A stretch of DNA of 64,000 nt from Octopus vulgaris. Lineage: Eukaryota. The stretch's first letter is position 1. Each line of letters opens with the position of its first letter. This document shows, piece after piece, positions 2,816 to 50,223 of this stretch. A program made the translations under genes and the position numbers. Under the pieces are notes generated by a model. The model saw only the letters and a list, made by a program, of their open reading frames with translations, ran no database searches and was not told where the DNA came from. The stretch spans positions 27,404,001 through 27,468,000 of the forward strand of contig OX597825.1 in NCBI GenBank assembly GCA_951406725.2, given 5' to 3'.

Positions 2816-3063
2816 GAGGCATATGGCCCAGGGGTTAGAGCAGTGAACTCGTGGTCGTGGGATAGCGGGTTCAAATCTCAGACCGGACAATGTATATTTA
2901 TGAGCGAAAGACCTAAACTCCACGCGGCTCCGCCAGAGAGTAATGTTGAACTTCTGCTGACACTTTCGGCACAACTTTCTTTCACTCCTTCTTCTTGCAT
3001 CCAGCAGCTCACCTGTGATCGGCTGGCGTCCCGTCCATGTGGGAAACCTATACGCCAATGAAA
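2813..3063 (+). mobile_element. tRNA-derived SINE (family C) with V-domain-like segment
   Basis: tRNA-like head (TGGCCCAGGGGTTAG ... GGTTCAAATC). The later CCTGTGATCGGCTGGCGTCCCGTCCA resembles the V-SINE domain. Head and body are shared with 45197-45462 (-). Confidence 0.7.
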
Positions 3064-5517: not shown

Positions 5518-5968
5518 GTTTCTTATTTCTTTGTTGTCCACAAGGGGCTAAACATAGAGGGAATTAACAAGGACAGACAAAGGAATTAAGTCGATTACAT
5601 CGACTCCAGTGCGTAACTGGTACTTAATTTATCGATCCCGAATGGATGAATGCCAAAGTCGACCTCGGTAGAATTTAAACTCACAACGTAACAGCAGACG
5701 AAATGCCGCTAAGCATTTCGTCCGGCGTGCTAACGTTTCTTATTTCTTCACTGCCCACAAAGGGCACAGAGGGGACAAACAAGGAAAGAAAAACGGATTA
5801 AGTAGCTTATATCGACCCCAGTGCGTAACTGGTACTCATTTAATCAACCCCGAAAGGATGAAAGGCAAAGTCGACCTCGGTGGAGATTGAACTCAGAACG
5901 TAGCGGCAGATGAAATGCTGCTAAGCATTTCGCCCGGCGTGCATAAGTTTCTGCCAACTCGCCGCCTT
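5518..5968 (-). mobile_element. tRNA-derived SINE family A, tandem dimer
   Basis: Two units of the core GTCGACTTTGCCTTTCATCCTTTCGGGGTCGATAAATTAAGTACCAG in reverse orientation, flanked by an 11-bp TSD CTGATATCGTA (5507-5517, 5969-5979). Confidence 0.9.
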
Positions 5969-6384
5969 CTGATATCGTATTTTGCAATCAACGTATGCCC
6001 GTCTTATAAAAGTATGCAAAATGTTAGTTCAATTTATTTGCAGCTATCGCTTTGCTAAGACTGGCTTATTTGTGAAGTACCAATCACATTCTGCTTATGA
6101 GAATAGAGTTCCGTTCGACAGAATAAAGAAACGTTTTACGGTAATTATTTCCGATTTTACGATATGAGCTCAAATCCAATCGTGGCCAATTCAGTACTTC
6201 ATACGACCGGAGGAGATGAAAGGAAATACCTAGGTGTTCTTGCTATTGATGTCATGGACTGCACATACACCACTTAAAATTACTAATTTTGGGTGTCAAG
6301 CACAAACAGAAATAAGCAGAAATAACGACAGCATGCGAGTATAGAATGAACTGAGCGCCGGTGATATCTTTTAATTCATGTATA

Positions 6385-6609
6385 AAGTGGCGAGATGGCA
6401 GAGACGTTAGCACACCGGTCGAAGTGCTTCGTGGTATTTTGCCCGTCGCCACGTTCTGAGTTCAAATTCCGTCGAGGTCGACTTTGCCTTTCATCCTTTC
6501 GGGGTCGATAAATTAAGTACCAGTTTCGCACTGGGATCGATGTACTCGACTTAATCCGTTTGTCTCTCCTTGTTTGTCCCGTCTATGTTTAGCCCCTTGT
6601 GGTTAATAA
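6385..6609 (+). mobile_element. SINE family A monomer
   Basis: Head GGCGAGATGGCAGAGACGTTAGC, B-box-like GAGTTCAAATTCC, conserved core, tail GCCCCTTGTGG. Confidence 0.9.
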
Positions 6610-6913: not shown

Positions 6914-7076
6914 AGGCGTAGGAGTGGCTATGTGGTAAGTAGCTTGCTTACGGACCACATGGTTCCGGGTTCAGTCCCACTGCGTGGCACCTTGGGCAAG
7001 TGTCTTCTACTATAGCATCGGGCCGACCAAATCCTTGTGAGTGGATTTGGTAGACGGAAACTGAAAGAAGCCCGTC

Positions 7077-7127
<51 letters not shown>

Positions 7128-7437
7128 TAAATTAGAGACAAAACCACTATTAGGCAAATCAAACAAAGAAAAACTTAAGCCAATACATATGATTAATTTA
7201 TATATGTGTGTGTGTGTGCGTCTATGTTTGTGTGTTGTGTTTGTCCCTCCCCCATCATCGCTTGACAACCGATGCTGGTGTGTTTATGTCCCTGTAACTT
7301 AGCGGTTCGGCAAAAGCGACCGACAGAATAAGTACTAGGTTTACAAAGAATAAGTCCTGGGGTCGATTTGCTCGACTAAAGGCGGTGCACCAGCATGGCT
7401 ACAGTCACATGACTGAAACAAGTAAAAGAGTAAAAGA
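6914..7437 (+). mobile_element. tRNA-derived SINE family B (CORE-like), with expanded internal (TA)n and a short insert
   Basis: Near-identical to 49803-50223 and 62090-62510. Contains ACCTTGGGCAAGTG (CORE-like) and ends GACTGAAACAAGTAAAAGAG. Confidence 0.9.
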
Positions 7438-22892: not shown

Positions 22893-25173
22893 ATATATAT
22901 AGGTATTATATACTTAGATTTATATATACACATGTGTGTGTGTGAGTGAATCTCCCTAACTGTACCCAACACAGTTTTAATGGACTTGTAAGAAACGAGG
23001 TGCGAACGTTATCTTCACGCAAGAATGATACCCATAAACCATTCCCCACGTGAGACACAACGATTCCGACAGTCATATTGCAGTTGGCTGACAGATTCTA
23101 CCGAACCCGGAAAAAGGAGAAAAGTACCGATGGGCTATGGCATCGTTCCTGTCGACCTTTTTGTTGTTTTTTTACACAGCTTATGTTGATACTTTGATAT
23201 AAGACACGAACCGATGTTATTTACATTACAGACACATCTCAGACCCTTATACTAAAAGCGGGCAACTAATAATATACTTAATTCATGACCACCTGAGCAA
23301 AATAACAAATGCTTATTTTTGATCGAGAGAGCACTTTTATAATTCCTTGTCGTGGTTTGATTGTTACCGTATAAGATTTGACGATTTTTATTTCAAATTT
23401 TACAAAAAATCAAATTGGAAATCTAACTGTATCGTTGGACAGAATATCTAGCGGTATTTCTCCCGACTTATTAATTTCGGAATTTAAATTTCACCGAGGT
23501 CAGCTTTGCTGTTTAGCATTCCGCGACCCGTAGAATCCACTACCACTCATGAACTAAAGTCGATAGTATAGATGAACCTCTTTCCTCAAAATTTTCTCAT
23601 TGGGCTATACATTAATACCACTTTAAAATAAAAAAAAGTATCTGCTTTAATATGTTAACTGAAGAAAACAAAGTAAGATAACAATCAAAGTGCAAGGTAG
23701 AAAGCATCGAAATACTTGTTTCAACTCTCTGTACATCGAGTTCAACTTTGCTGTTCATTCTTTCAGGACATCAAGGAAAGGTCACAGTTCAGTGTTCTTT
23801 TTGTTTTGAATTCAAATGATACCACAACCTACTTGGGTCCTCGACATAACATATCATTCATTTTAACACCTACATCTGATCCCTTCGATGCATTTAGCAC
23901 AGCTCAATTTGATGCAAACATTTGAACGAGGTCACTAGGATATCTTTGTTTCACCATCTAAGTAGATTCTGTGGATGTATAAAAGAGTTATTGGCACTGC
24001 TCTTCCTCATTACTATAATGTAAGAATAACCCTGATTAAAAAAGTATTCGTAGCATCAGTGAAAAAAGTATAAAATAATGTAATTTCATTTGAAAATCTC
24101 TTTCCTTTATCCGTCGGTAATACGGTACTATATTGATGCAAATATATGTGTATGTAGCTTTCTTAGATGTTAGACTCCGTCAAAAAACTTCACGCTCTTA
24201 CATATAAATCGGAAGGCAGTATGATATTTATTTGACAGCAAATTTTAGAGTAATTCAACTTGATTAAAAGTAGTGTACTGTAAGGTGGGAAAAATTCTTG
24301 ATTTGTTAAATGTATTCACACAGATTTAGATGTACGGTGAATTGACAGGAAATCTATATGACCATTTACTTGAGTCGATTTAATGAAACTGCATACGGAA
24401 GACATAATAAGATTCTCCAGAGAGTCCTCGGTCTAATATGAATTGTCAGTATTCTGTCATTTGGTGTGAATGCAGTTTTATTCATGTGTGAAAGATGTCA
24501 GTAGCTTCTGAAAGAAAATCTGTTTTTACACTGAACGACACTCTTGTATTTCTTTTTATGTTTTGTGTTTTTTTTTTCATTACTTTCAAGTAAGTATATT
24601 ATGTTTGGTAAAATGTTGGCTGTTAAACAGACAATCGTCAATGTATATCAATGAAGTTTATCCTAATGTCCACTGAAGACCTTTAATAAAAAGTCTGCTG
24701 GCTGTCACGCATCAACTATATTTACGGTCACTTTGTCTTGTGTTTAATGGTAATGTACATTTTTGTATATGAGGGGTTTTGTTGCTCAATGCGATCATCT
24801 ATTTTAAGGCTGTAAAATGTCATAACGAGATTTAAGTGCTCTATCTACTATTTAGAACTACACTCATTGGCCCCGAGGCTAGATAACTTGTAGCTGGTCT
24901 CCTATGTTTTACTGCCAAGCTCCATGGAAGATATGATGAACCAGGTCTAGAACTGAATTCTTGCCCTGGCGATTTCTTCGTTATAACAACGACGTTATCC
25001 AATGCGTCTTCTTGTAAAGACTGTAGAGTGTGTGAGAGTGTGAGCTTCCAAGCTCCCGCGCGCGCATTTTTGTGTGTTTGTATATGCGCGACCATTTGAT
25101 CAAGTCCCTTCCTTGCGAAAGAAAATGATCAATTCACAAAAATATCGGCATCTGCTCAATGATTAAAATATAA

Positions 25174-25216
<43 letters not shown>

Positions 25217-25217
<1 letters not shown>

Positions 25218-25590
25218 CTCTATATATAAACGGCAGTTTGTCTGTGCGTGTTTCTGTGTGTCTGTTTGCTTGTACCCTCACCCTGACCACGGCCTTTCAA
25301 CTGATTCTGATGAAACTTGACACACAATCCCAATGTCATAATTCAAAACTAACGCAGCCTCGTGATTTTGAAAAGTTTCCGCTTCTGAAAAAACACACAC
25401 AACGCCCGGTCTCGGGAATCGAAACACGATCCTCCGACTGCTAGTCCGCGCCTCCATCACTTTTTTAACTCTCAAAAAAAATTTACCATCATTTTTTATA
25501 TTTTTTATATATTTTTATATTATATACTATATATAAAATGCTTTATAGTTATTATCCCTTATAATACCTGAGCAACGCCGGGCGATACTG

Positions 25591-25594
<4 letters not shown>
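25217..25594 (+). mobile_element. Non-autonomous Helitron-like element containing a SINE-C head fragment
   Basis: 5' TC start (TCTCTATATATAAA..GTCTGTG), 3' hairpin CCTGAGCAACGCCGGG then ACTGCTA(T) in place of CTAG. 25390-25458 matches the SINE-C head on the minus strand. Confidence 0.6.
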
Positions 25595-25648
<54 letters not shown>

Positions 25649-26000
25649 ATTTTACTTGTTTTAGTCAGTCTTTTAAAGTTTTAAATAAGCACAATTAAAC
25701 AAAAACCAAAAAAAACAATCATTACTATAAAACATATTTGTTTATACTTTTACTTGTTTCAGTCAGTTTTATGTCTCTCTTTCTCTCTATCTCTCTATCT
25801 CTCTCTCTCTCTTGTGTCTATCTTTCTCTTTTTACGACGATTCGGCATAAGCTGATGTTAACCACACGTATATCTTAATTCCTGGGAGTCCTGAACCGAT
25901 CCACAACCCGTGTAGATATATACGTAGACACAACACAGATACATACACACACAAATATATATGTGTATGTATGTACGCATGTATGTATGAATGTATGTAT

Positions 26001-26040
<40 letters not shown>

Positions 26041-26370
26041 GAGGCCTTCTAAGTTGCTTCCAAAACATGGTTCCTAGTGCAGTTCCACTGCGTAGCATCT
26101 TAGGTGAGTGATTTCCACTATAGCCCCGGGTCAACTAAAGACTTATGAGTGGATTTAGTAGAGGGAGATTGAAAGAACTCCTGCCGTACATATGTATATA
26201 TCTATGTATGTCCTTATGCTTGTGCGTGATTTTATTTTTGTGCTTGTCCCCACCATCTTTTGATAAGCCTGTGCGTTTTTCTTTTCGTCCGTGTAACCTA
26301 GAGGTTCAGCAAATAGGAGGTTGTCAGAATAAACAAACAAATTTAGAAAATACGTAAAAGGTTCCATTTT

Positions 26371-26529
26371 ATTTACATTATTTACAATTGACGGACATTT
26401 ATCCTCATCTTGTTTGTTGTGAACACAAAGTTTCGGCTTAGATACCCTCCAGCCTTTATCAGGTGTCTTGGGGAAACTTCGAACCTGGGTTCTCATTCCT
26501 AAGGTATTTTTCGATGCTGTTGTTGTTGC

Positions 26530-26593
<64 letters not shown>

Positions 26594-26741
26594 GTTGTTG
26601 TTGTTGTTGTTGCTGTTGTTGTTGTTTCTGTTATTGTTGTTATTATTATCATTATTATTATTCAGGTCACTGCCTGGAATCAAATTCTGAATCTTGAGGT
26701 TAGTAGCCCGCGCACTTAACAACTACGCTGTATGCCCGTGG
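26371..26741 (-). mobile_element. Solo Penelope terminal-repeat unit: tRNA-like head + (AAT/AAC)n + hammerhead
   Basis: The head (26661-26741) matches 32074-32122 downstream of the GIY-YIG relic, the tail (26371-26417) matches 31559-31605, and a hammerhead motif lies at 26423-26466. Confidence 0.8.
26423..26466 (-). ncRNA. Minimal type I hammerhead ribozyme (mutated copy)
   Basis: ACAC-CTGATAA-AGGCT ggagggtatcta AGCC-GAAAC-TTT-GTGT. Stem I is ACAC/GTGT and stem II is GGCT/AGCC. The core carries G8>A, so this copy is probably inactive. Confidence 0.7.
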
Positions 26742-27331
26742 TTCGATTTATGCCTCCAAACCCTTCAATGCCGTGCCCCAGCATGGCCACATCAAATGAC
26801 TGAAATAAGTAAGACTGAAAAACAATTTCTTTGGTTTAATTCTAAAATCCTTCGAATTTTCGTAACAATTATTGATTTGTTTCTATACTATATCACAGTT
26901 CCTCCTTAGTTTATCTAAGTGCATGGATTTCGTTTTAAACCCTAAGTTCTGTGGATATGTGAATTACTTCTTCAAGCGATTATTTTTGTGTGTTTTCTAA
27001 CGCAGTTTTCATAAAGTCGTAATATTTTCATCTTTTTCTAAACTCAAATAGTAGTATTAAATTTCTACTTCTGTAATAACTCTCAGAATTATTTCATTCT
27101 TTTCCATATACTCAGTATTTTCATGTTGCCCAAGGTATTTTTCGACGATTTTTATTCTTTTCTTTTCACATTATTTCATAGTAGAATTTTTAGATGTTTA
27201 GAAATTTACGACTATGAAATTTTTCTACAATTATTAGGCATAGGAGAAATTTTTCGTCATATGTCTGTAAATTTCATCAATATTTTACTTTTCCATCAAA
27301 AACTAAACATATAATAGTAATAATAATAATG

Positions 27332-27422
<91 letters not shown>

Positions 27423-27424
<2 letters not shown>

Positions 27425-27932
27425 TGGCTCTCGTGGCTTCTAATCTTAACTGATTGGAAGTGTTACCATGTACATTATTTTGTCTTCGTATAGAAGATGG
27501 GCTACTGCAAATATTCTGCTAAATACCACAGATTTGCTTATCAATTCTTTCACCATAACCACTTAAGCATGTCCCTTAGTGGCTGACGATACTTGCATCT
27601 CTGATCACGAGCAGAAGTAAAGGGGAGCAGCATAGCAATGCGTTGAGAGGGATTCTTTGGGGTTTGAATAATTCACCTCTGGAAACATGGGTGCTTCGTT
27701 CAACATCCTTAAACAGAACTTATTCAGGAACCTTTTGAGCGGGAAGGGATACTCGACCAGAAGAAAATTATAACTGGGCCCCACCTGCAAGGTCATGATA
27801 TGAAATCACAATATCGCGCATATATGGTTGTGATAAATGTACCTTATCATACGCGTAGGCACGATGGATATGCCGGGCTTCGTATTTTTTACCCCAGTGT
27901 CACTTTGTTGGCATGTACTGCTCTCTCGCTCA
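27423..27932. mobile_element. Dispersed ~0.5-kb non-coding element flanked on both sides by (AAT)n
   Basis: Colinear and highly similar to 55117-55563. Both copies sit inside (AAT)n tracts. Confidence 0.85.
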
Positions 27933-27946
27933 GTAATAATAATACC

Positions 27947-27977
<31 letters not shown>

Positions 27978-28039
27978 TCGAAAAATATATATACCAAGAT
28001 AAAACATTGTACATCAAGAAGAAGGAAAAGAAGACGTTG

Positions 28040-28122
28040 ATGATAATGATGATGATGATGATGGTGATGGTGGTGGTGGTGATGATGATGATGATGATGA
28101 TGATGATGACGACGACGACGAC

Positions 28123-28155
<33 letters not shown>

Positions 28156-28478
28156 TTATAAGTAGAAGAAAAAGAAGAAAAAGGAAGAAGAAGAAGAAGA
28201 AGAAGAAACAGAAGAAGAAGAAGAAGAAGAAAAAGGAAGAAGAAGAAGAAGAAGAAAAAGGAAGAAGAAGAAGAAGAAGAAGAAGAAGAAGAAGAAGAAG
28301 AAGAAAGGAAGAAGAAGAAGAAGAAGAAGAAGAAGAAGAAAAGAAGAAGAAGAAGAAGAAGAAGAAGAAGAAAAGAAGAAGAAGAAGAAGAAGAAGAAGA
28401 AAAAGGAAGAAGAAGAAGAAGAAGAAGAAGAAGAAGAAGAAAAAAGGAAGAAGAAAAAGTAGAAGAAAAGAAGAAGAT
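28040..28478. repeat. Compound (GAT)n/(GAC)n/(GAA)n microsatellite
   Basis: Directly visible, and explains the low-complexity ORFs at 27800-28612. Confidence 0.95.
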
Positions 28479-29879
28479 GGATCAATAGAGAAATGGATCG
28501 ATCGATAGATACATAGAGAGCGAGAAAGAGAGAGATCGAAAGGTAGATGTTCATGTAAACATGTATTTATATTTCCCCGATAAGTTCTTTTTCTTTTTTT
28601 CTTAAGAGTCATAATTTTAAACTAATCTCTTTTTCCAAGCAATAATCGGCGCATCTAGCGGTGCACATTTCCGCATTCAATTCTTTGACTCGTCATTCGT
28701 TTCGATTTTTATTTGGTTCTCAAATATTTCTTCAGAACTTACGAATAAATCACTAGGTTTATAGAAACCTAACTATAAAAACCATTCTCTATATCCACAC
28801 GCCCACACACATATAAACATACTTATTTACGCATATAGGCACATAATATATATATATGTAAGCGTATATATATATGCATGCAATCTCACACTCACATATG
28901 TTAATGTTATAACGTATAGATGTATGCTTGCGTGTATGTACGTGTGTTATATCTCTGAGATACAGATCTACATTGATATTAAATGTGGTTATCTGGTACA
29001 ATAAACATTAACATTAATAGCTCTAAATACGTGGGGACAAGTTCAGTTGACCCATATCTTTAATCTCTGAAGTAATTAAATCTTCTCTTAAGTGACCATC
29101 AAGTTGATAATAAAACTCATCGTATATCTTAAGCAAAACCGATGTGCTTTCCCTGTAAGCTAAGCATTGTTCACTGTTTACCATAGCAATAACACTATCT
29201 GTGAGGCAGTTATTTCAACAGCAATAAGTTCTTGGTGCTCCGCAGAAATTTGACTGACATAAAACTGTCAGTCATGTTTCCTACTTCATCCGTATCCAAG
29301 GACTATTTTATTATCTATTAATAAATGCAATTCTCGTTTCCTGTTACGCTTAGATTTGTAAATCTTATTTTAAAATGAAATGAGAAATTTCTAATATTCC
29401 GCTACTAGAACAAAGCGTTTAATCGAAAAATACAAAGTGTGCTAAGAAACAATATATTGAACGACTATATACTATGCTATATAAATATTCCAGGGCTTGC
29501 AATGTACTGTCAAATAAAACGGCATGATTGCATTATGTGATGTTATTTTAGTGTTGTATGATGAATGAATGTTGATACGACCGTGTAGAACTGCAAATAC
29601 ATGCAGAGGAAACAAAATAGTGTTTTGCAGTTTTTTGTTTCACTCTTGACAACAGTAAGTGAAGTTGCTTGAATGATATATCTAGTGGTAGTATATCTGG
29701 AGATTAATAGTTCATATCCTAGGATTTGCTATTGGTATTTCCCCATGTACTGTGAAGCGTATGCATTATTCTACTCAACATCTGTTGATACTCCTACGAG
29801 TATCATACCGCAAGTCATGCAAATGAGTATGTTTCTATTAACTCACATAGATCGTTCAGATCGCATATATTTGTAGAGT

Positions 29880-31460
<1,581 letters not shown>

Positions 31461-31469
31461 CTTCAGTGA

Positions 31470-32122
31470 TACTGGATGTATCCCCCCAACACCTGAGAAA
31501 TTGAGACGACACGGGTGATGAGAGACTTCCAGTATTTTAAGGTAATTTTTATCTACATTATTTACATTATTTACAATTAACGGATAGTTTTCCTCAACTT
31601 GTTTGTATCTCCGAAAAGATACAAAAGATATGCGGCCCATATGATATCAAGACCGTAATTAAAACTAATACAACACTTCGCAAATACCCCACTCGAGTAA
31701 AACAACCAAGAGAATATGACTAAGAACTGCGTGTACACCATCCTATGCAGCTGTGGTAGGTTATACAAAGGTGAAACACGTCGCCCCCTCAATATAAGGG
31801 TAGAGGAACATGGAAAAGATGTGACACGAGGAGGTATTGATAAATCATGTATGGAAAAATGGAGACCACTTCCCCCTGTAGGATGAAGTTAAAATAATAG
31901 ACAGAGAACACTACTGGAAAATATGAAAACTAAAAGAAGCAGCACATATGCTAGGGCACAATAACCTCCTAAGCAGACCGAGTGAAGATATGAGCAGCAT
32001 ATGGGAAATGGTATTCAGGAAGGATAGGAGAATATTATATAGTTATAAGCCCTAAAATTCAGTCCATAATTACCCACGGGCATACGGTGTAATGGTTAAA
32101 AGCGCGGACTACTAAGCCCAAG
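31470..32122 (+). mobile_element. Penelope-like element 3' fragment: GIY-YIG endonuclease relic with an inverted terminal-repeat piece at its 5' side
   Basis: 31716-31846 encodes MTKNCVYTILCSCGRLYKGETRRPLNIRVEEH, followed by VKIIDREH..KLKEAAHM..NLLSRPS. A tRNA-like segment lies at 32074-32122 and an inverted tail copy at ~31559-31605. Confidence 0.85.
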
Positions 32123-32144
32123 TTATATATATATATATACAAAC

Positions 32145-32213
<69 letters not shown>

Positions 32214-32225
32214 CACAGACACACA

Positions 32226-32266
<41 letters not shown>

Positions 32267-32289
32267 TATACATACATATATGCATACAT

Positions 32290-32322
<33 letters not shown>

Positions 32323-34761
32323 TACATATATATATATAATATGTATGTATGTTTGTATATATTTTTCACTCGGAAATTGTTTGGGAATATCTTGTAATGT
32401 AATTTTATATAATTTGTAACTGTGTACAAATATAGCGATTCCAAGTCATACCTAACATTGTAGGAAAGATTACAAATTCTACGACCAAAATAATCTAACC
32501 TCAAAAATACTACATCTCTTTTATCCATTTAATTTTTCAATCAACGAATTTTTCTCTAGTTTCTGGAAATATCCTAATTATCATAACACCGAAAACATCG
32601 TCTCTAAATTTGTATTTCAATTGAAATCACTAAAGAAGTATTTTATTTTTTAAGCAATTAAATAATGATTCTAAAATAAAATATATTTAAGATCAAAGAC
32701 AAGCTATTCGTCTAAGTTTCATTGAAATAGATTCTAAATATATCGTTAACGTTTATTTGGGATTTGTTTTTCGTTCAAATATGACAAATATGAGGCAGTC
32801 AGAATGAATCTCAAACATGACATTTTGTTTGTTTGTTATCTCTGTTCTCTGATTCCGATATTTCTAATTTGGTGTTCGGGAGAAGGAAATTGTTACAGTG
32901 CGTGTCTGTTATGTAAATAGTTCTTTGTGTGCTTAATCATCTTAATTCTTTTATCTCTCTGAAAGGGAAATGAAGTTAGCGAAACATTATCGAACGAAAA
33001 TCGTTCCTTTGAGACAGCTGCTGACTGTCGCTTGCAATAAACCATTGGTCGTATTCTGTCAGAAAGGAAATTGGTTTTATATTACGAATACGAACTGCAA
33101 TTAGGGATATTTGGACGGAATCAACAGGGCTTATTTTCTTGTAATCTATGGCTAAGGAATCCAAAGTTACCGTCTTCGCTAAGAAAGCTGCTCTAATAAT
33201 AATCAAACTGAAATGTTTTTCAATCATGTGAGTAGGCGTAATGTTTGCTTCTCATCACAGTAAAATTTACTTTGCGAGTTATTGTTATTGTAGTGAATTA
33301 GCTTCGGCAGGCATCAAATATACGCCGCACATCAACTAAGAGATTTGGTATGTTAGTACCATATTTAATGGTTTATTTCATTTAAATTTTTGAAAATGTC
33401 TTGAAAATATTTCAAGTAAAAGAATGACTTCAAATACACTAGGTAAATATAAATGATCACACAATATATGATTTATAATAAGTTATTACATATTGGATAC
33501 GGTTTTCACTGATAGCCAATACAGTGTATGTGTGTGTGTGCGTGTGTGTGTCTGTGTGCCTATGTATGTATGTACAGCTTCATGTAAGCAGACACGCTAC
33601 ACAGACGTATGTTTGTATATATTTACATATGTAAACGTTAACGTTAATTTGGGAATTGTTTTTCGTACAAATATGACAAATATGAAGCAGTCGGAATGAA
33701 TCACTTTCAAATAACGGGTATTACAATTGGCATTGTAGTAACAGCATGTTCGCAGTAACATATGATATATACCGGCATACGGCGGTTAGGCAGTTAGCTA
33801 AGCAGTGTAGTACTGTAGCAGATGTGACTGTAGAAGTCACTCTTTATCTAGGACAATGCCAAGTGTATTATAAGTGCAGCATATATATATATTGAGAATA
33901 ACATTACTTTCGTCATTTTTCAGGAAATGATTATCATAAAAAACTAATTTATAGCATTCAACTAATATAACTTGTTGGTGAACAATTATTTACTTCTGGA
34001 TGGAGTTAATCAGAATGGAATGTCATTCTTTTCATATAGCTTACTGATTGATCATCTTTTGTTAATTTATAATAATTAAATATGGTGCTTTTTAGGTCAT
34101 AACTCCACTAAATATGAGTTTTAATGTTACGATTGCTTCTACAGCTAGAATTGAAAATAACGTTTAACGTTTTCTGTCTTTCCTTTTAGTTCTTTTTGCG
34201 GCAGTGTTGATGCTATGCTACGGTTACTCGTTTTGTAAAGGTTTTCCTTCGGTTCTTATTCATAATGTTGATGCTGTATCACCACAATTCTATCTACATG
34301 ATTAATTCAGCCAAGATGATTGGAAGAAAAACCACGTGGCTTAATATTGGTTCTGTCTAGAGAAGATCATTACATCAATTATAATAAACAGCTGCAATTG
34401 TTAAGTTTCACTCAGCTCTTGTTAGGTGATTGTTTATTTACCTAACGAACTGACTAAACATTTGTTTTATTTATTGGATAATCAATGAATTTACTGTTTG
34501 CCAAAGTCCTTTCATCGCTATTTACGGCCTCATCAATGACATATTCTCTTTCCTCTTAGTCTCTTCTGATTTTGTCGCTTTTATTTCAAAACATAAGCTC
34601 ACATTCACTATCTTGCAAGCCATATCAAGAAACAGAAAACACGAAATAAATAATATTCCACGCTAAATATGCGACTCTTCACGTCAAGTGGTACTTTAAT
34701 ATACCATTGAACAAAAAAAAAATAGATAGTTAACATATTCACAGAAGCTTTGCTTCTATGA

Positions 34762-36412
34762 TTAGTAGTTGATGTAAGAGCCATTTTGTTTGACTACCTC
34801 AATGCGTCTGTTAGTAGATTCAGCCAGTGTTTGTTAGCAGAGGGCAGGACTGCCTTAGCAGAGTCTTTTATTGCTTTCCAAAGTGTTTCTGTAGATGTGT
34901 GCAACTTGCCAATCTGGTAGGTCTTATGTTTGAGGATGCTCCAGAAATTCTCGCTGGAATACAAATCTGGAAAACAGGTTGGCCACTTCGTTAAAGTTTC
35001 TGCTTTGAAGCCCAGTGAGGAAAGAGGACCTCTTTGGTTCTCTTAGCAGCATGTGTTGGGGCCTATCGTGCATAAAATTAACCTTGCTAAGCTCATATAA
35101 TGGCATCTCATCAAACCAGTCAGGATATACTTAATAAAGTTACAATATGTGATAGCTTAATCTTCATACATTCTGTCACTTTAAATGGACCAATCATTCT
35201 GTCTCCCATGATGCCAGTCCATAACATGACTCCTCCTCTTCCTTCTGGCTAACGGTGTAAACGCACGTGAGCGGGGTTGTCATAAAACACCCATTCCTTA
35301 ACCCAAACATCAAGCCCCTCTAGTGTGGCTCGGTAAGGCGGCGAGCTGGCAGAAACGTTAGCACGCCGGGCGAAATGCGTAGCCGTATTTCGTCTGCCGT
35401 TACGTTGAGTTCAAATCCCGCCGAGGTCGACTTTGCCTTTCATCCTTTCGGGGTCGATTAAATAAGTACCAGTTACGCACTGGAGTCGATATAATCGACT
35501 TAATCCGTTTGTCTGTCCTTTCTGTGTTTAGCCCTTTGTGGGTAGTAAAGAAATATGTATTACGTCTGCCGCTACGTTCGGAGTTCAAATTCCGCCGAGG
35601 TCGACTTTGCCTTTCATCCTTTCGGCGTCGATTAAATAAGTACCTGTTATGCACTGATGTCGATATAATCGACTTAATCCGTTTGTCTGTCCTTGTTTGT
35701 CCTCTCTGTGTTTAGCCCCTTGTGGGTAATAAAGAAATAGTTACTCATCAGAGAACAAAATATGATTGTCATCACTCTTCATATACATTATATCCCATTC
35801 TAACCGAGCTTTTTGTGTTTGGGAGTCAACGGAGGCTTGCACGCAGGTTTCTTCCCTTTGGCCAAGCTACCAATTACTTTATTTCTCTCTTGTTTTGTAG
35901 ACATCTTCAATACCAGCGTCTTTAAATAAATTTTTACTAGTACATCCGAGATGATTTTTAATTAAGCATCGCTTGAGAAGGGAAATATCTGACGCTGTGA
36001 CTGCTCGGTACTTACCGTTATCACTGATCTCTTTCCGATACTTGGGATTTGTAAATTTTTGTAAATTTTGTAAATAGAGAATTGTTTTCACATGACGACC
36101 TAATTTCTTGGTCAATTTATCTGCAGAATTGGCTTTACTTATTTCTTTTAAAATCTAGTGCCTCTCATAGTCTATAAGATCTTTTCCACACCCCGTCATT
36201 TGAAATCAATATTATGACTATTAATTCTGTTCACTTCAAAGAGAAAATTGTTGATTAATGGAAATTTTTTAAAAAACAGCAAATATTAATTTTTTTATAC
36301 AAACCAAAATCAGCGTACTGTACTATCATGTAAATGTTCTTCAAAATACCACGGGTAGTTATTTAGAAAATCTAAAAAAACCCATCATGGACTATTATCT
36401 CGGTTCTCAGTA
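34762..36412 (-). pseudogene. Decayed Tc1-superfamily transposase split by a SINE insertion
   Basis: RLEW..ILFSDE|RATLEGLDVW..GGVMLWTGI..GPFKV..FMHD..WPTCFPDL.SSENFWSILK..NGSYINY*. Start region near 36199. Confidence 0.85.
35335..35740 (+). mobile_element. SINE family A dimer inserted in the Tc1 transposase
   Basis: Full head AAGGCGGCGAGCTGGCAGAAACG. The second unit begins after AAAGAAATA at ~35556. Confidence 0.9.
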
Positions 36413-38921: not shown

Positions 38922-39240
38922 TATAATATGTCGTATATGCGTGTGTGTATATGTGTATGTATTTATTGTGTATATAGTGTCTACACACTATATTGTCGGG
39001 AAAATATCTAATTGTACTGAACGCTATGACAATGTTGGACTGCATAAAAAATAAGAAGAAGTACAATAAAATAGTAAATCTCGCAATATAAGCACATCGT
39101 GTTCAGTAAAAATAGCATAACTGTTAACTGTAACTGAATATATGATAAGACTTCGCAAATAACACGAAGCTATATAATTTTCTGGAAACACAAACCAATA
39201 CAACAACGACAGTGCAGCAATACGAATTTAATAGATTGCT

Positions 39241-39476
39241 CAGAAGGCGGCTAGCTGGTGGAACCGTTAGCACGCCGGGCGAAATGAATAGCCGTATCTC
39301 GTCTGCCGTTACGTTCTGAGTTCAAATTCCGCCGATGTCGACTTTGCCTTTCATCCTTTCGGGGTCGATAAATTAAGTTCCTGTTACGCACTGGGGTCGA
39401 TGTATTCGACTAAATTCGTTTGCCTGTCCTTGTTTGACCCCTCTATGTTTAGCTCCTTGTGGGTAATAAAGAAACA
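39241..39476 (+). mobile_element. SINE family A monomer
   Basis: Full head, core and tail, with a 12-bp TSD TAATAGATTGCT (39229-39240, 39477-39488). Confidence 0.92.
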
Positions 39477-44339: not shown

Positions 44340-44735
44340 CATTGCTTTCAATTTTTGGTACAAGTCCAGCAATCTCAAGAGATGTGTTAAATCGATTACA
44401 TCGACTACAGTGCTCAACAGGTATTTACTTTATTTCACTCGTACGTATGAAAGGCAAATAGACGACCTCGGAAGTATTTGAAATCAGAAGGTTGAGAGGG
44501 ACAAAATACCTATTTCTTTACTACCCACAAGGGGCTAAATACAGAGGGGTCAAACAAGTACAGGCACACGGATGAAGTCGATTATATCGACCCCAGTGCG
44601 TAACTAGTACTTAATTTATCGACCCCAAAAGGATGAAAGGCAAAGTCGACCTCGGTGGAAATTGAACTCAGAACGTAACGGCAGACGAGATACGGCTACG
44701 CATTTCGCCCGGCGGGCTAACGTTTCTGCTAGCAC
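44340..44735 (-). mobile_element. SINE family A / older-variant hybrid dimer
   Basis: The minus strand reads ...GTAGTAAAGAAATA|GGTATTTTGT... at ~44510, and the downstream unit is more diverged. Confidence 0.8.
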
Positions 44736-49803: not shown

Positions 49804-50223
49804 GGCGCAGGAGTGGCTGTGTGGTAAGTAGCTTGCTTACCAACCACATGGTCATGGGTTCAGTCCCACTGCGTGGCACCTTGGGCAAGTGTCTTCTACT
49901 ATAGCCTCGGGCCGACCAAAGCCTTGTGAGTGGATTTGGTAGACGGAAACTGATAGAAGCCCATCGTATATATGTATGTATATATATATGCGTGTGTGTG
50001 TTTGTGTATCTGTGTTTGTCCCTCTAGCATTGCTTGACAACTGATGCTGGTGTGTTTATGTCCCCGTTACTTAGCGGTTCGGCAAAAAGAGACCGATAGA
50101 ATAAGTACTGGGCTTACAAAAGAATAAGTCCCGGGGTCGAGTTGCTCGATTAAAGGCGGTGCTCCAGCATGGCCGCAGTCAAATGACTGAAACAAATAAA
50201 AGAGTAAAAGAGTAAAAGAGTAA
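49803..50223 (+). mobile_element. SINE family B, full length
   Basis: Near-identical to 62090-62510, with a (GTAAAAGA)n tail. Confidence 0.92.

Follow-up and report, generated by a model that had tools for sequence, protein, structure and literature searches.

A Penelope-like element of the octopus with a tRNA-derived head in its terminal repeat, and the short SINE-like copies that share it

The short unit at 26371-26741 of the window (the whole stretch of octopus DNA analysed here, 64 kb long) is a copy of the terminal repeat of an autonomous and abundant Penelope-like element (PLE), and this terminal repeat opens with a tRNA-derived head. The family as a whole is a real and abundant PLE, now decayed, in which the terminal repeat is the unusual part. 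Its short copies resemble SINEs, and are probably by-products of the full element's own RNA, not members of a separate SINE family.

On the minus strand, the ~370 bases of the unit read leader, tRNA-like head, (AAT/AAC)n, and a tail with a minimal hammerhead (Table 1). The earlier note on this DNA, made from the letters alone, had described this layout, and all of its parts were found where it had placed them. The 3' end of the tail falls in the first of two 3' end zones preferred by the family, and the inferred RNA start of the family lies 2 nt upstream of the leader remnant. The unit has neither an inverted arm nor a clear target duplication. It is a dead copy, decayed in both promoter boxes and in the ribozyme core: the core carries two changes, at G8 and G16.2, with CUGAUAA replacing CUGAUGA (G8>A) and GAAACUUU where the family has GAAACGUU.

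Table 1. Features of the short unit, its host SINE and the PLE relic, in positions of the window
Feature	Position	Strand	Basis or remark
Older host SINE, 5' part	26054..26370	+	Flank matches and empty-site alignment
Short unit, a single PLE terminal-repeat copy	26371..26741	-	Leader, tRNA head, microsatellite and first ~126 nt of ORF with hammerhead
Leader remnant before tRNA position 1	26738..26741	-	4 of 6 nt
tRNA-Arg(ACG)-like head	26663..26737	-	89% to family majority
A box	26730-26720	-	3 changes in window copy
B box	26685-26676	-	2 changes in window copy
(AAT/AAC)n spacer	26518..26662	-	~145 nt in window copy
"Tail": short 5' UTR and start of PLE ORF	26371..26517	-	ATG at 26496
Minimal type I hammerhead within ORF	26422..26467	-	Family majority, fold and alignment; features as given in the part of PMC4209133 used here
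Hammerhead stem I	26467-26463/26426-26422	-	
Hammerhead core	26462-26456	-	GAAA at 26434-26431; predicted cut after 26427
Older host SINE, 3' part	26742..26812	+	Flank matches and empty-site alignment
Inverted piece of the same tail, at 5' junction of PLE relic	31558..31606	-	Alignment
Broken 3' end of PLE ORF, endonuclease region	31607..32048	+	Family stop at about 32046-32048
23-nt spacer, 6-nt leader and first 45 nt of tRNA head (32078-32122)	32049..32122	+	

ARAGORN detected no tRNA anywhere in the 64-kb window, and Rfam gave no tRNA or hammerhead match in 24000-35000 or in four other copies of the family. The window hammerhead folds as drawn, yet shuffled sequences fold just as well (z -0.06). 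It is thus the family majority sequence and the alignment, not a match in a library, that establish the tRNA and hammerhead motifs. A second ATG lies directly 3' of the hammerhead cut site (window 26369-26410, minus strand; family tail positions about 110-180). Excising a 38- or 47-nt GT..AG stretch after it would bring it in frame with the ORF, possibly as an alternative start or a tiny intron, and no splice joint for this stretch was seen in RNA-type contigs.

The sequences bordering the unit on its two sides align to consecutive segments of an older SINE, as found in other copies within the window (49833-50089 and 50150-50199; 6957-7100 and 7379-7425), and the rejoined empty site, with the unit removed, aligns to other copies of that SINE. 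The unit is therefore nested inside the older SINE, as had been proposed; we take this host to be a CORE-type SINE, judged by a motif in it. A PLE relic is present further along the window. The tail of the unit matches it at 31606-31558 (89.8% over 49 nt, E 1e-13), inverted relative to the endonuclease relic, and directly after that relic, 32074-32122 aligns with the head (81.6% over 49 nt, E 1.5e-8). The earlier note had recognised both the inverted tail before and the same head after this GIY-YIG relic. In the relic, the remainder of the terminal repeat is missing beyond the head piece listed in Table 1. Another repeat occurs in the window as ~200-nt copies in both orientations, 81-89% alike (5524-5972, 6384-6609, 35557-35743, 39240-39474, and 44507-44733).

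The parent element was reconstructed from a genome of 2.8 Gb in 227 contigs. Its monomer consists of a 6-nt leader, the tRNA head with A and B boxes, (AAT)n, the ATG, the hammerhead, an 837-codon ORF for reverse transcriptase (RT) and a probable endonuclease, and a 23-nt spacer, after which the next leader begins. In keeping with the Penelope terminal-repeat origin that had been suggested for the unit, the head comes after the stop codon of the ORF, and the tail continues into the ORF. All 29 other loci found with the endonuclease end have the head ~30 nt after the stop (the query for these loci included part of the head), and 26 of them continue via (AAT)n into a full hammerhead tail. The long copies also have the tail upstream of the ORF, in direct orientation and running into it, so that the repeat forms the direct partial tandem of a PLE pseudo-LTR (pLTR); inverted 5' arms are present in 46 of 89 copies. 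The majority sequence of 25 long copies has a single open frame of 844 codons, 837 of them counted from the tail ATG, and this frame passes through the hammerhead. The "AT-rich tail" is therefore coding sequence, namely the first ~160 nt of the 837-codon ORF with the hammerhead included. An intron as a requirement for opening this ORF was rejected, as the ORF is open without one.

The family protein contains an RT domain (Pfam RVT_1, E 1.4e-10), and a homolog with 58% RT identity (P0009) has the same hammerhead-encoded N-terminus. The RT of the family protein is 44% identical to that of an Anolis protein of PLE architecture and 38-44% identical to those of echinoderm, lamprey, and insect proteins, and on this similarity we place the element, putatively, in the Penelope/Poseidon clade. 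Pfam gave no GIY-YIG match in the family protein, nor in the Anolis homolog; the GIY-YIG/CCHH motif region aligns by eye with PLE-type homologs, and a 46% relative carries PF01541. A genome search with a distant homolog returned 30 of 30 loci of the same family, so this search supplied no control PLE from within the genome.

Exact 20-mers were counted in the whole genome 9,064 times for the tail, 5,148 times for mid-head, and 3,429 times for the head start (CpG degenerate), compared with 865 times for a stretch 12-32 nt upstream of the head on the ORF side and 884 times for one 117 nt further upstream. At 5-6% divergence, these counts correspond very roughly to 30,000 tails, 16,000 heads, and 3,000 ORF ends genome-wide, with both arms of inverted inserts counted.

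The head resembles tRNA-Arg(ACG). A self-designed degenerate tRNA pattern had 34 genomic matches, and the eight that were fetched were all called tRNA-Arg(ACG). The family head agrees with genomic tRNA-Arg(ACG), the one tRNA covered by this comparison and the one picked via that pattern, at 53 of 73 positions from base 1, with a score of 35 vs a mean of 7 and a maximum of 19 in 1,000 shuffles. The A and B boxes are intact in the family majority and fit the Pol III consensus. The family therefore has a tRNA-derived head with both boxes at its 5' end, as a SINE2 does, and its majority sequence contains CUGAUGA and GAAA as well as the two boxes, each of which the earlier note had named as a feature whose absence would speak against its reading. 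The cloverleaf fold of the head has been lost, with acceptor and T stems that no longer pair. An HDV-like ribozyme reading of the head was rejected by eye, as it lacks the P1.1/L3 pattern. Among 38 other PLE loci, in metagenome contigs with enough downstream DNA, none has A and B boxes after the ORF, so PLEs do not generally have such a tRNA head. A different repeat begins (window 2818-2841) with sequence similar to the head's first 25 nt (84%, E 0.14), and the head may have reached the PLE through a SINE and not straight from a tRNA gene. Nineteen of the tRNA-Arg(ACG) pattern matches form a cluster at G000:C2:211887720-211907118, many of them ~206 bp apart; one was fetched and confirmed.

The hammerhead of the family majority has the core, stems I and II, an extra base after position 9, G10.1-C11.1, and a palindromic 15.2-16.2, which are traits given for minimal PLE hammerheads in the part of PMC4209133 used here. 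The full core of this predicted ribozyme is retained in 24 of 85 copies. The commonest non-CpG core variant affects the free position 7, occurs in both groups of copies (10/47 and 6/40), and is also a conservative codon change. The 3' ends of 76 copies fall mainly in two zones ~35 nt apart within the ORF start (35 at ORF +119..+136 and 32 at +156..+166), 50-95 nt past the cut site, and only one lies at the cut itself. Hammerhead cleavage thus does not set the ends of the inserts, and the earlier description of the copies as self-cleaving units, of which the window copy even has a mutated core, found no support. The two zones correspond to the optional 30-40 nt 3' tail of endonuclease-bearing PLEs. 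This matches the anole PLE, where priming takes place internally, at one site ~111-118 nt into the ORF and at another 30-40 nt downstream of it, and where hammerhead cleavage is dispensable (PMC11167929, the part used here). The copies are dispersed monomers or inverted pairs and not the hammerhead-delimited tandem units of retrozymes. Rare tandems exist in L170, L171, and L172; the one in L170 (oriented, about 1500-2370) is a retrozyme-like array of about three units, each made up of the tail and the initial 75 nt of the ORF body.

The 5' ends were read in 89 loci that come from the earliest of the 5,148 mid-head matches, in order of position along contig C1, with L080 left out as the same locus as L081. 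Fifteen copies begin inside the head, 59 at -8..+8 of its start, two at +20 and +26, and 13 in the ORF, while 0 of 89 begin at +8..+19; two of the 89 (L198 and L218) were found on reading to be ORF-linked with small deletions. The rate of 5' ends is 0.067 per nt at the head border vs 0.003-0.009 elsewhere. Randomly distributed 5' ends and an inconsistent linkage of tRNA segment and hammerhead had been named as findings that would count against the proposed unit, and neither was encountered, since 59 of 89 ends lie within 8 nt of the head start and the head is joined to the hammerhead tail in 76 of 89 copies. Among the 59 head-start copies, 22 are without a detected inverted arm, 22 have an arm from the head, and 15 an arm from the tail.

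Further junctions involve the same border. Among 30 loci with tail-ORF junctions, there are eight directly oriented ORF-to-head jumps, six of which arrive at +4..+6, two of them through a common junction; deletion of the spacer as the source of such jumps was rejected (0 of 20 junctions). Of 60 loci in which two A's precede the leader, 20 have varied upstream sequence, which is never the ORF end. In L362, L366, and L367, the head's first 20-28 nt occur twice in a row, and the second copy begins at the leader G, as expected of a template jump at an RNA 5' end. The evidence points to the leader G as the first base of an RNA; this G lies 13 nt ahead of the A box, where Pol III would be expected to start. 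Direct repeats of 6-12 bp flank the non-inverted units L204, L229, and L208, a few bases from the 5' end (read by eye), and are possibly target-site duplications.

We regard it as fairly probable that there is RNA with its start at the head, likely synthesised by Pol III from a putative promoter, and that the PLE RT primes within this RNA and copies it back. In such a mechanism, the RNA would start at the G six bases before the head, and the PLE protein would bind the ORF start on this RNA and prime within it at a nick in the genome, as in vitro work has shown for the PLE of the anole (PMC11167929, the part used here). Priming in the 5' repeat would copy back ~300 nt to the RNA 5' end and yield a short unit, while priming in the 3' repeat would yield ORF-bearing copies, randomly truncated. 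The cDNA end would often fold back or jump, which would give rise to the inverted arms, and the templates would be uncleaved at the hammerhead.

Alternatively, the tRNA segment may be a passive passenger, left by an old SINE or tRNA insertion, in an element whose RNA is made by Pol II or by read-through, with the step at the head caused by palindrome fold-back or RT arrest. A palindrome does straddle the head start, and 17 of 37 intact leaders that are not ORF-linked form perfect palindromic junctions. Inverted arms are carried by 46 of 89 copies, including 37 of the 59 head-start copies. Palindromes at the 5' ends of pLTRs are also known from rotifer PLEs without tRNA heads, for which self-priming has been proposed (PMC3846280, the part used here), so fold-back explains part of the 5'-end pattern. 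However, the 22 non-inverted copies and the 15 with an arm that starts far off in the tail end at the same border, the direct jumps and the short head duplications also hit the leader G, and none of the 89 copies stops at +8..+19, where the outer half of the hairpin sits. The border also lies at the distance from an intact A box at which a Pol III start is generally expected. We therefore consider a mere passenger unlikely, and continue with RNA starting at the head as the preferred reading.

Whether the short copies propagate on their own was assessed with 56 short vs 44 ORF-linked copies, with L198 and L218 counted among the latter. L199 and L084 were omitted as likely duplicates; the flanks are almost identical within the pairs L196/L199 and L083/L084, which probably arose by segmental duplication. 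After correction, 0 of 239 sites are diagnostic (best P 0.028), and the two groups have the same majority sequence. Tail divergence is 5.3% in short vs 6.1% in ORF-linked copies (P 0.22), and the tree of the 68 long-enough copies is mixed, with 19 label changes vs 21.8 when shuffled (65 of 500 as low). This tree is star-like and of limited power, so a SINE master identical to the PLE repeat would stay invisible in it. With majority sequence, age, and tree shared by the two groups, the separately propagating SINE-like family of the earlier note found no support. Its model, which treats the short copies in the genome as true SINEs that Pol III transcribes and that the PLE protein re-mobilises in trans, seems to us improbable. 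In its favour are the excess of short over ORF-linked copies (~5:1), the A and B boxes and the lack of T4 runs in the short copies, and their apparently longer spacer (median 36 vs 23 nt). One deleted mini-tandem is moreover present twice with different flanks, namely in L171 and L172 (G000:C3, about 3.76 and 4.76 Mb), which share a deletion junction from ORF body position 220 to the leader. Against it, this mini-tandem has only two matches genome-wide, and the groups differ in neither diagnostic site, age, nor place in the tree. The ends of the short copies also coincide with the priming sites, but the PLE of the anole required RNA as far as ORF +172 (PMC11167929, the part used here), so most of them may lack part of the binding signal.

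It is very improbable that the RNA 5' end arises by processing, through an RNase P-like cut at the tRNA-like segment of some longer transcript: a share of the 5' ends does lie at -3..0, adjoining tRNA position 1, but several of these reflect CpG decay in the alignment (by eye), many ends keep 3-7 nt of leader beyond position 1, and the acceptor and T stems no longer pair.

In the preferred reading of RNA starting at the head, the least certain part is Pol III, rather than Pol II, as the maker of this RNA, together with the length that it reads. Use of the putative tRNA-type promoter by Pol III is likely. The 2.65-kb majority monomer contains no sense-strand T4 run, vs 28 runs of at least four A. 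This absence has P 0.012 by base shuffle, 0.055 by dinucleotide shuffle, and 0.029 with synonymous codons; G4 runs are likewise absent from the monomer. Among controls, 0 of 15 long intact PLE ORFs and 2 of 39 stretches of at least 1.5 kb are free of T4. The absence of T4 hints that Pol III could read the whole element, and is suggestive only. Contigs of four presumed-RNA runs contain copies of the family but reveal neither a start, a strand nor a splice joint, and weigh neither way on start or polymerase. A far bolder version, possible but one that we would not expect to hold in full, is that an autonomous coding retrotransposon swapped Pol II for a captured tRNA promoter, and that its 2.65-kb monomer, purged of TTTT, is transcribed whole by Pol III. 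Full elements and SINE-like stubs, the latter in tens of thousands, would then come from one RNA; a SINE would be arising within its own partner, which could serve as a model for the origin of SMalpha-type promoter-plus-hammerhead repeats. If Pol III does read the whole ORF, this would contradict the expectation, argued for the autonomous partners of TRIMp3 elements in the part of PMC10886601 used here, that autonomous retrotransposons need Pol II, and how an uncapped RNA gets translated would become a question.

PLE transcription and the reason for the fixed 5' borders of PLE terminal repeats are poorly known. The octopus family is a sharp case, with a putative tRNA-type promoter exactly at the border, a candidate start mapped, and thousands of copies that record RT stops; in such a genome, thousands of apparent "SINEs" can be PLE stubs. 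Ohshima and Okada reportedly described tRNA-derived SINEs of octopus, named OK, OR1, and OR2, in 1994. These are similar in their tRNA-derived heads and come from what is probably the same animal group. OR1 and OR2 are classed as CORE-SINEs (PMC4824008, PMC4758252, PMC5804259, in the parts used here); unlike them, the unit passes from the head directly into (AAT)n and PLE sequence, and the ~60-nt CORE body is absent, as judged from structure.

Among PLEs, those of the Penelope/Poseidon type, for example PAc of the anole, similarly have a single ORF with RT and with a C-terminal endonuclease, the latter a probable feature of the octopus protein (PMC11167929, PMC4209133, PMC8557442). In anole PAc-type PLEs the ORF likewise begins at the minimal pLTR hammerhead, and 5' truncation, inverted 5' arms, the optional 30-40 nt tail, the two priming sites, and a cut that is not at the insert ends are shared as well. 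The octopus PLE differs from described PLEs in that an A/B-box module of tRNA origin and (AAT)n open its pLTR. The promoters described for PLEs, as given in the parts of the same three papers used here, are of Pol II type, with the TSS and an intron in the pLTR and TATA/Inr-like motifs.

Short hammerhead sequences derived from PLE pLTRs, often as monomers, are also found as the non-LTR retrozymes of animals, which differ in their tandem arrays giving circular RNA and are said to be promoterless (bioRxiv 10.64898/2026.07.22.740005; PMC7761336, in the parts used here). The main text of the retrozyme preprint (bioRxiv 10.64898/2026.07.22.740005) mentions no tRNA module, and no mollusc was sampled in it. 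The TRIMp3 elements Cassandra, Helenus, and Ajax similarly have a small-RNA-derived Pol III promoter inside a terminal repeat (PMC10886601, the part used here), but these are non-autonomous LTR elements, whereas the octopus repeat belongs to an autonomous element of a different retrotransposon class.

The earlier note knew of no description of a tRNA module combined with a hammerhead, but a Pol III promoter with a hammerhead in a SINE-like repeat is known in SMalpha/Sjalpha (PMC6765202, the part used here). No description was found of a tRNA module in the terminal repeat of an autonomous PLE. A PLE with a tRNA-headed repeat was not found in the literature; Repbase, SINEBase, the PMC13282606 library, and the preprint supplements lay outside this search and may hold the family. 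The schistosome SMalpha/Sjalpha repeats are, like the octopus unit with its putative promoter, short and dispersed, with a type I hammerhead downstream of a Pol III promoter, but these are non-coding and tandem or multimeric, with an active hammerhead that liberates them by self-cleavage (PMC6765202, PMC8490949, in the parts used here). In contrast, the octopus module lies within an autonomous coding PLE, its minimal hammerhead is inside the ORF, and its inserts are not bounded by the cut. The family thus connects the terminal repeats of PLEs with Pol III/hammerhead repeats such as SMalpha.
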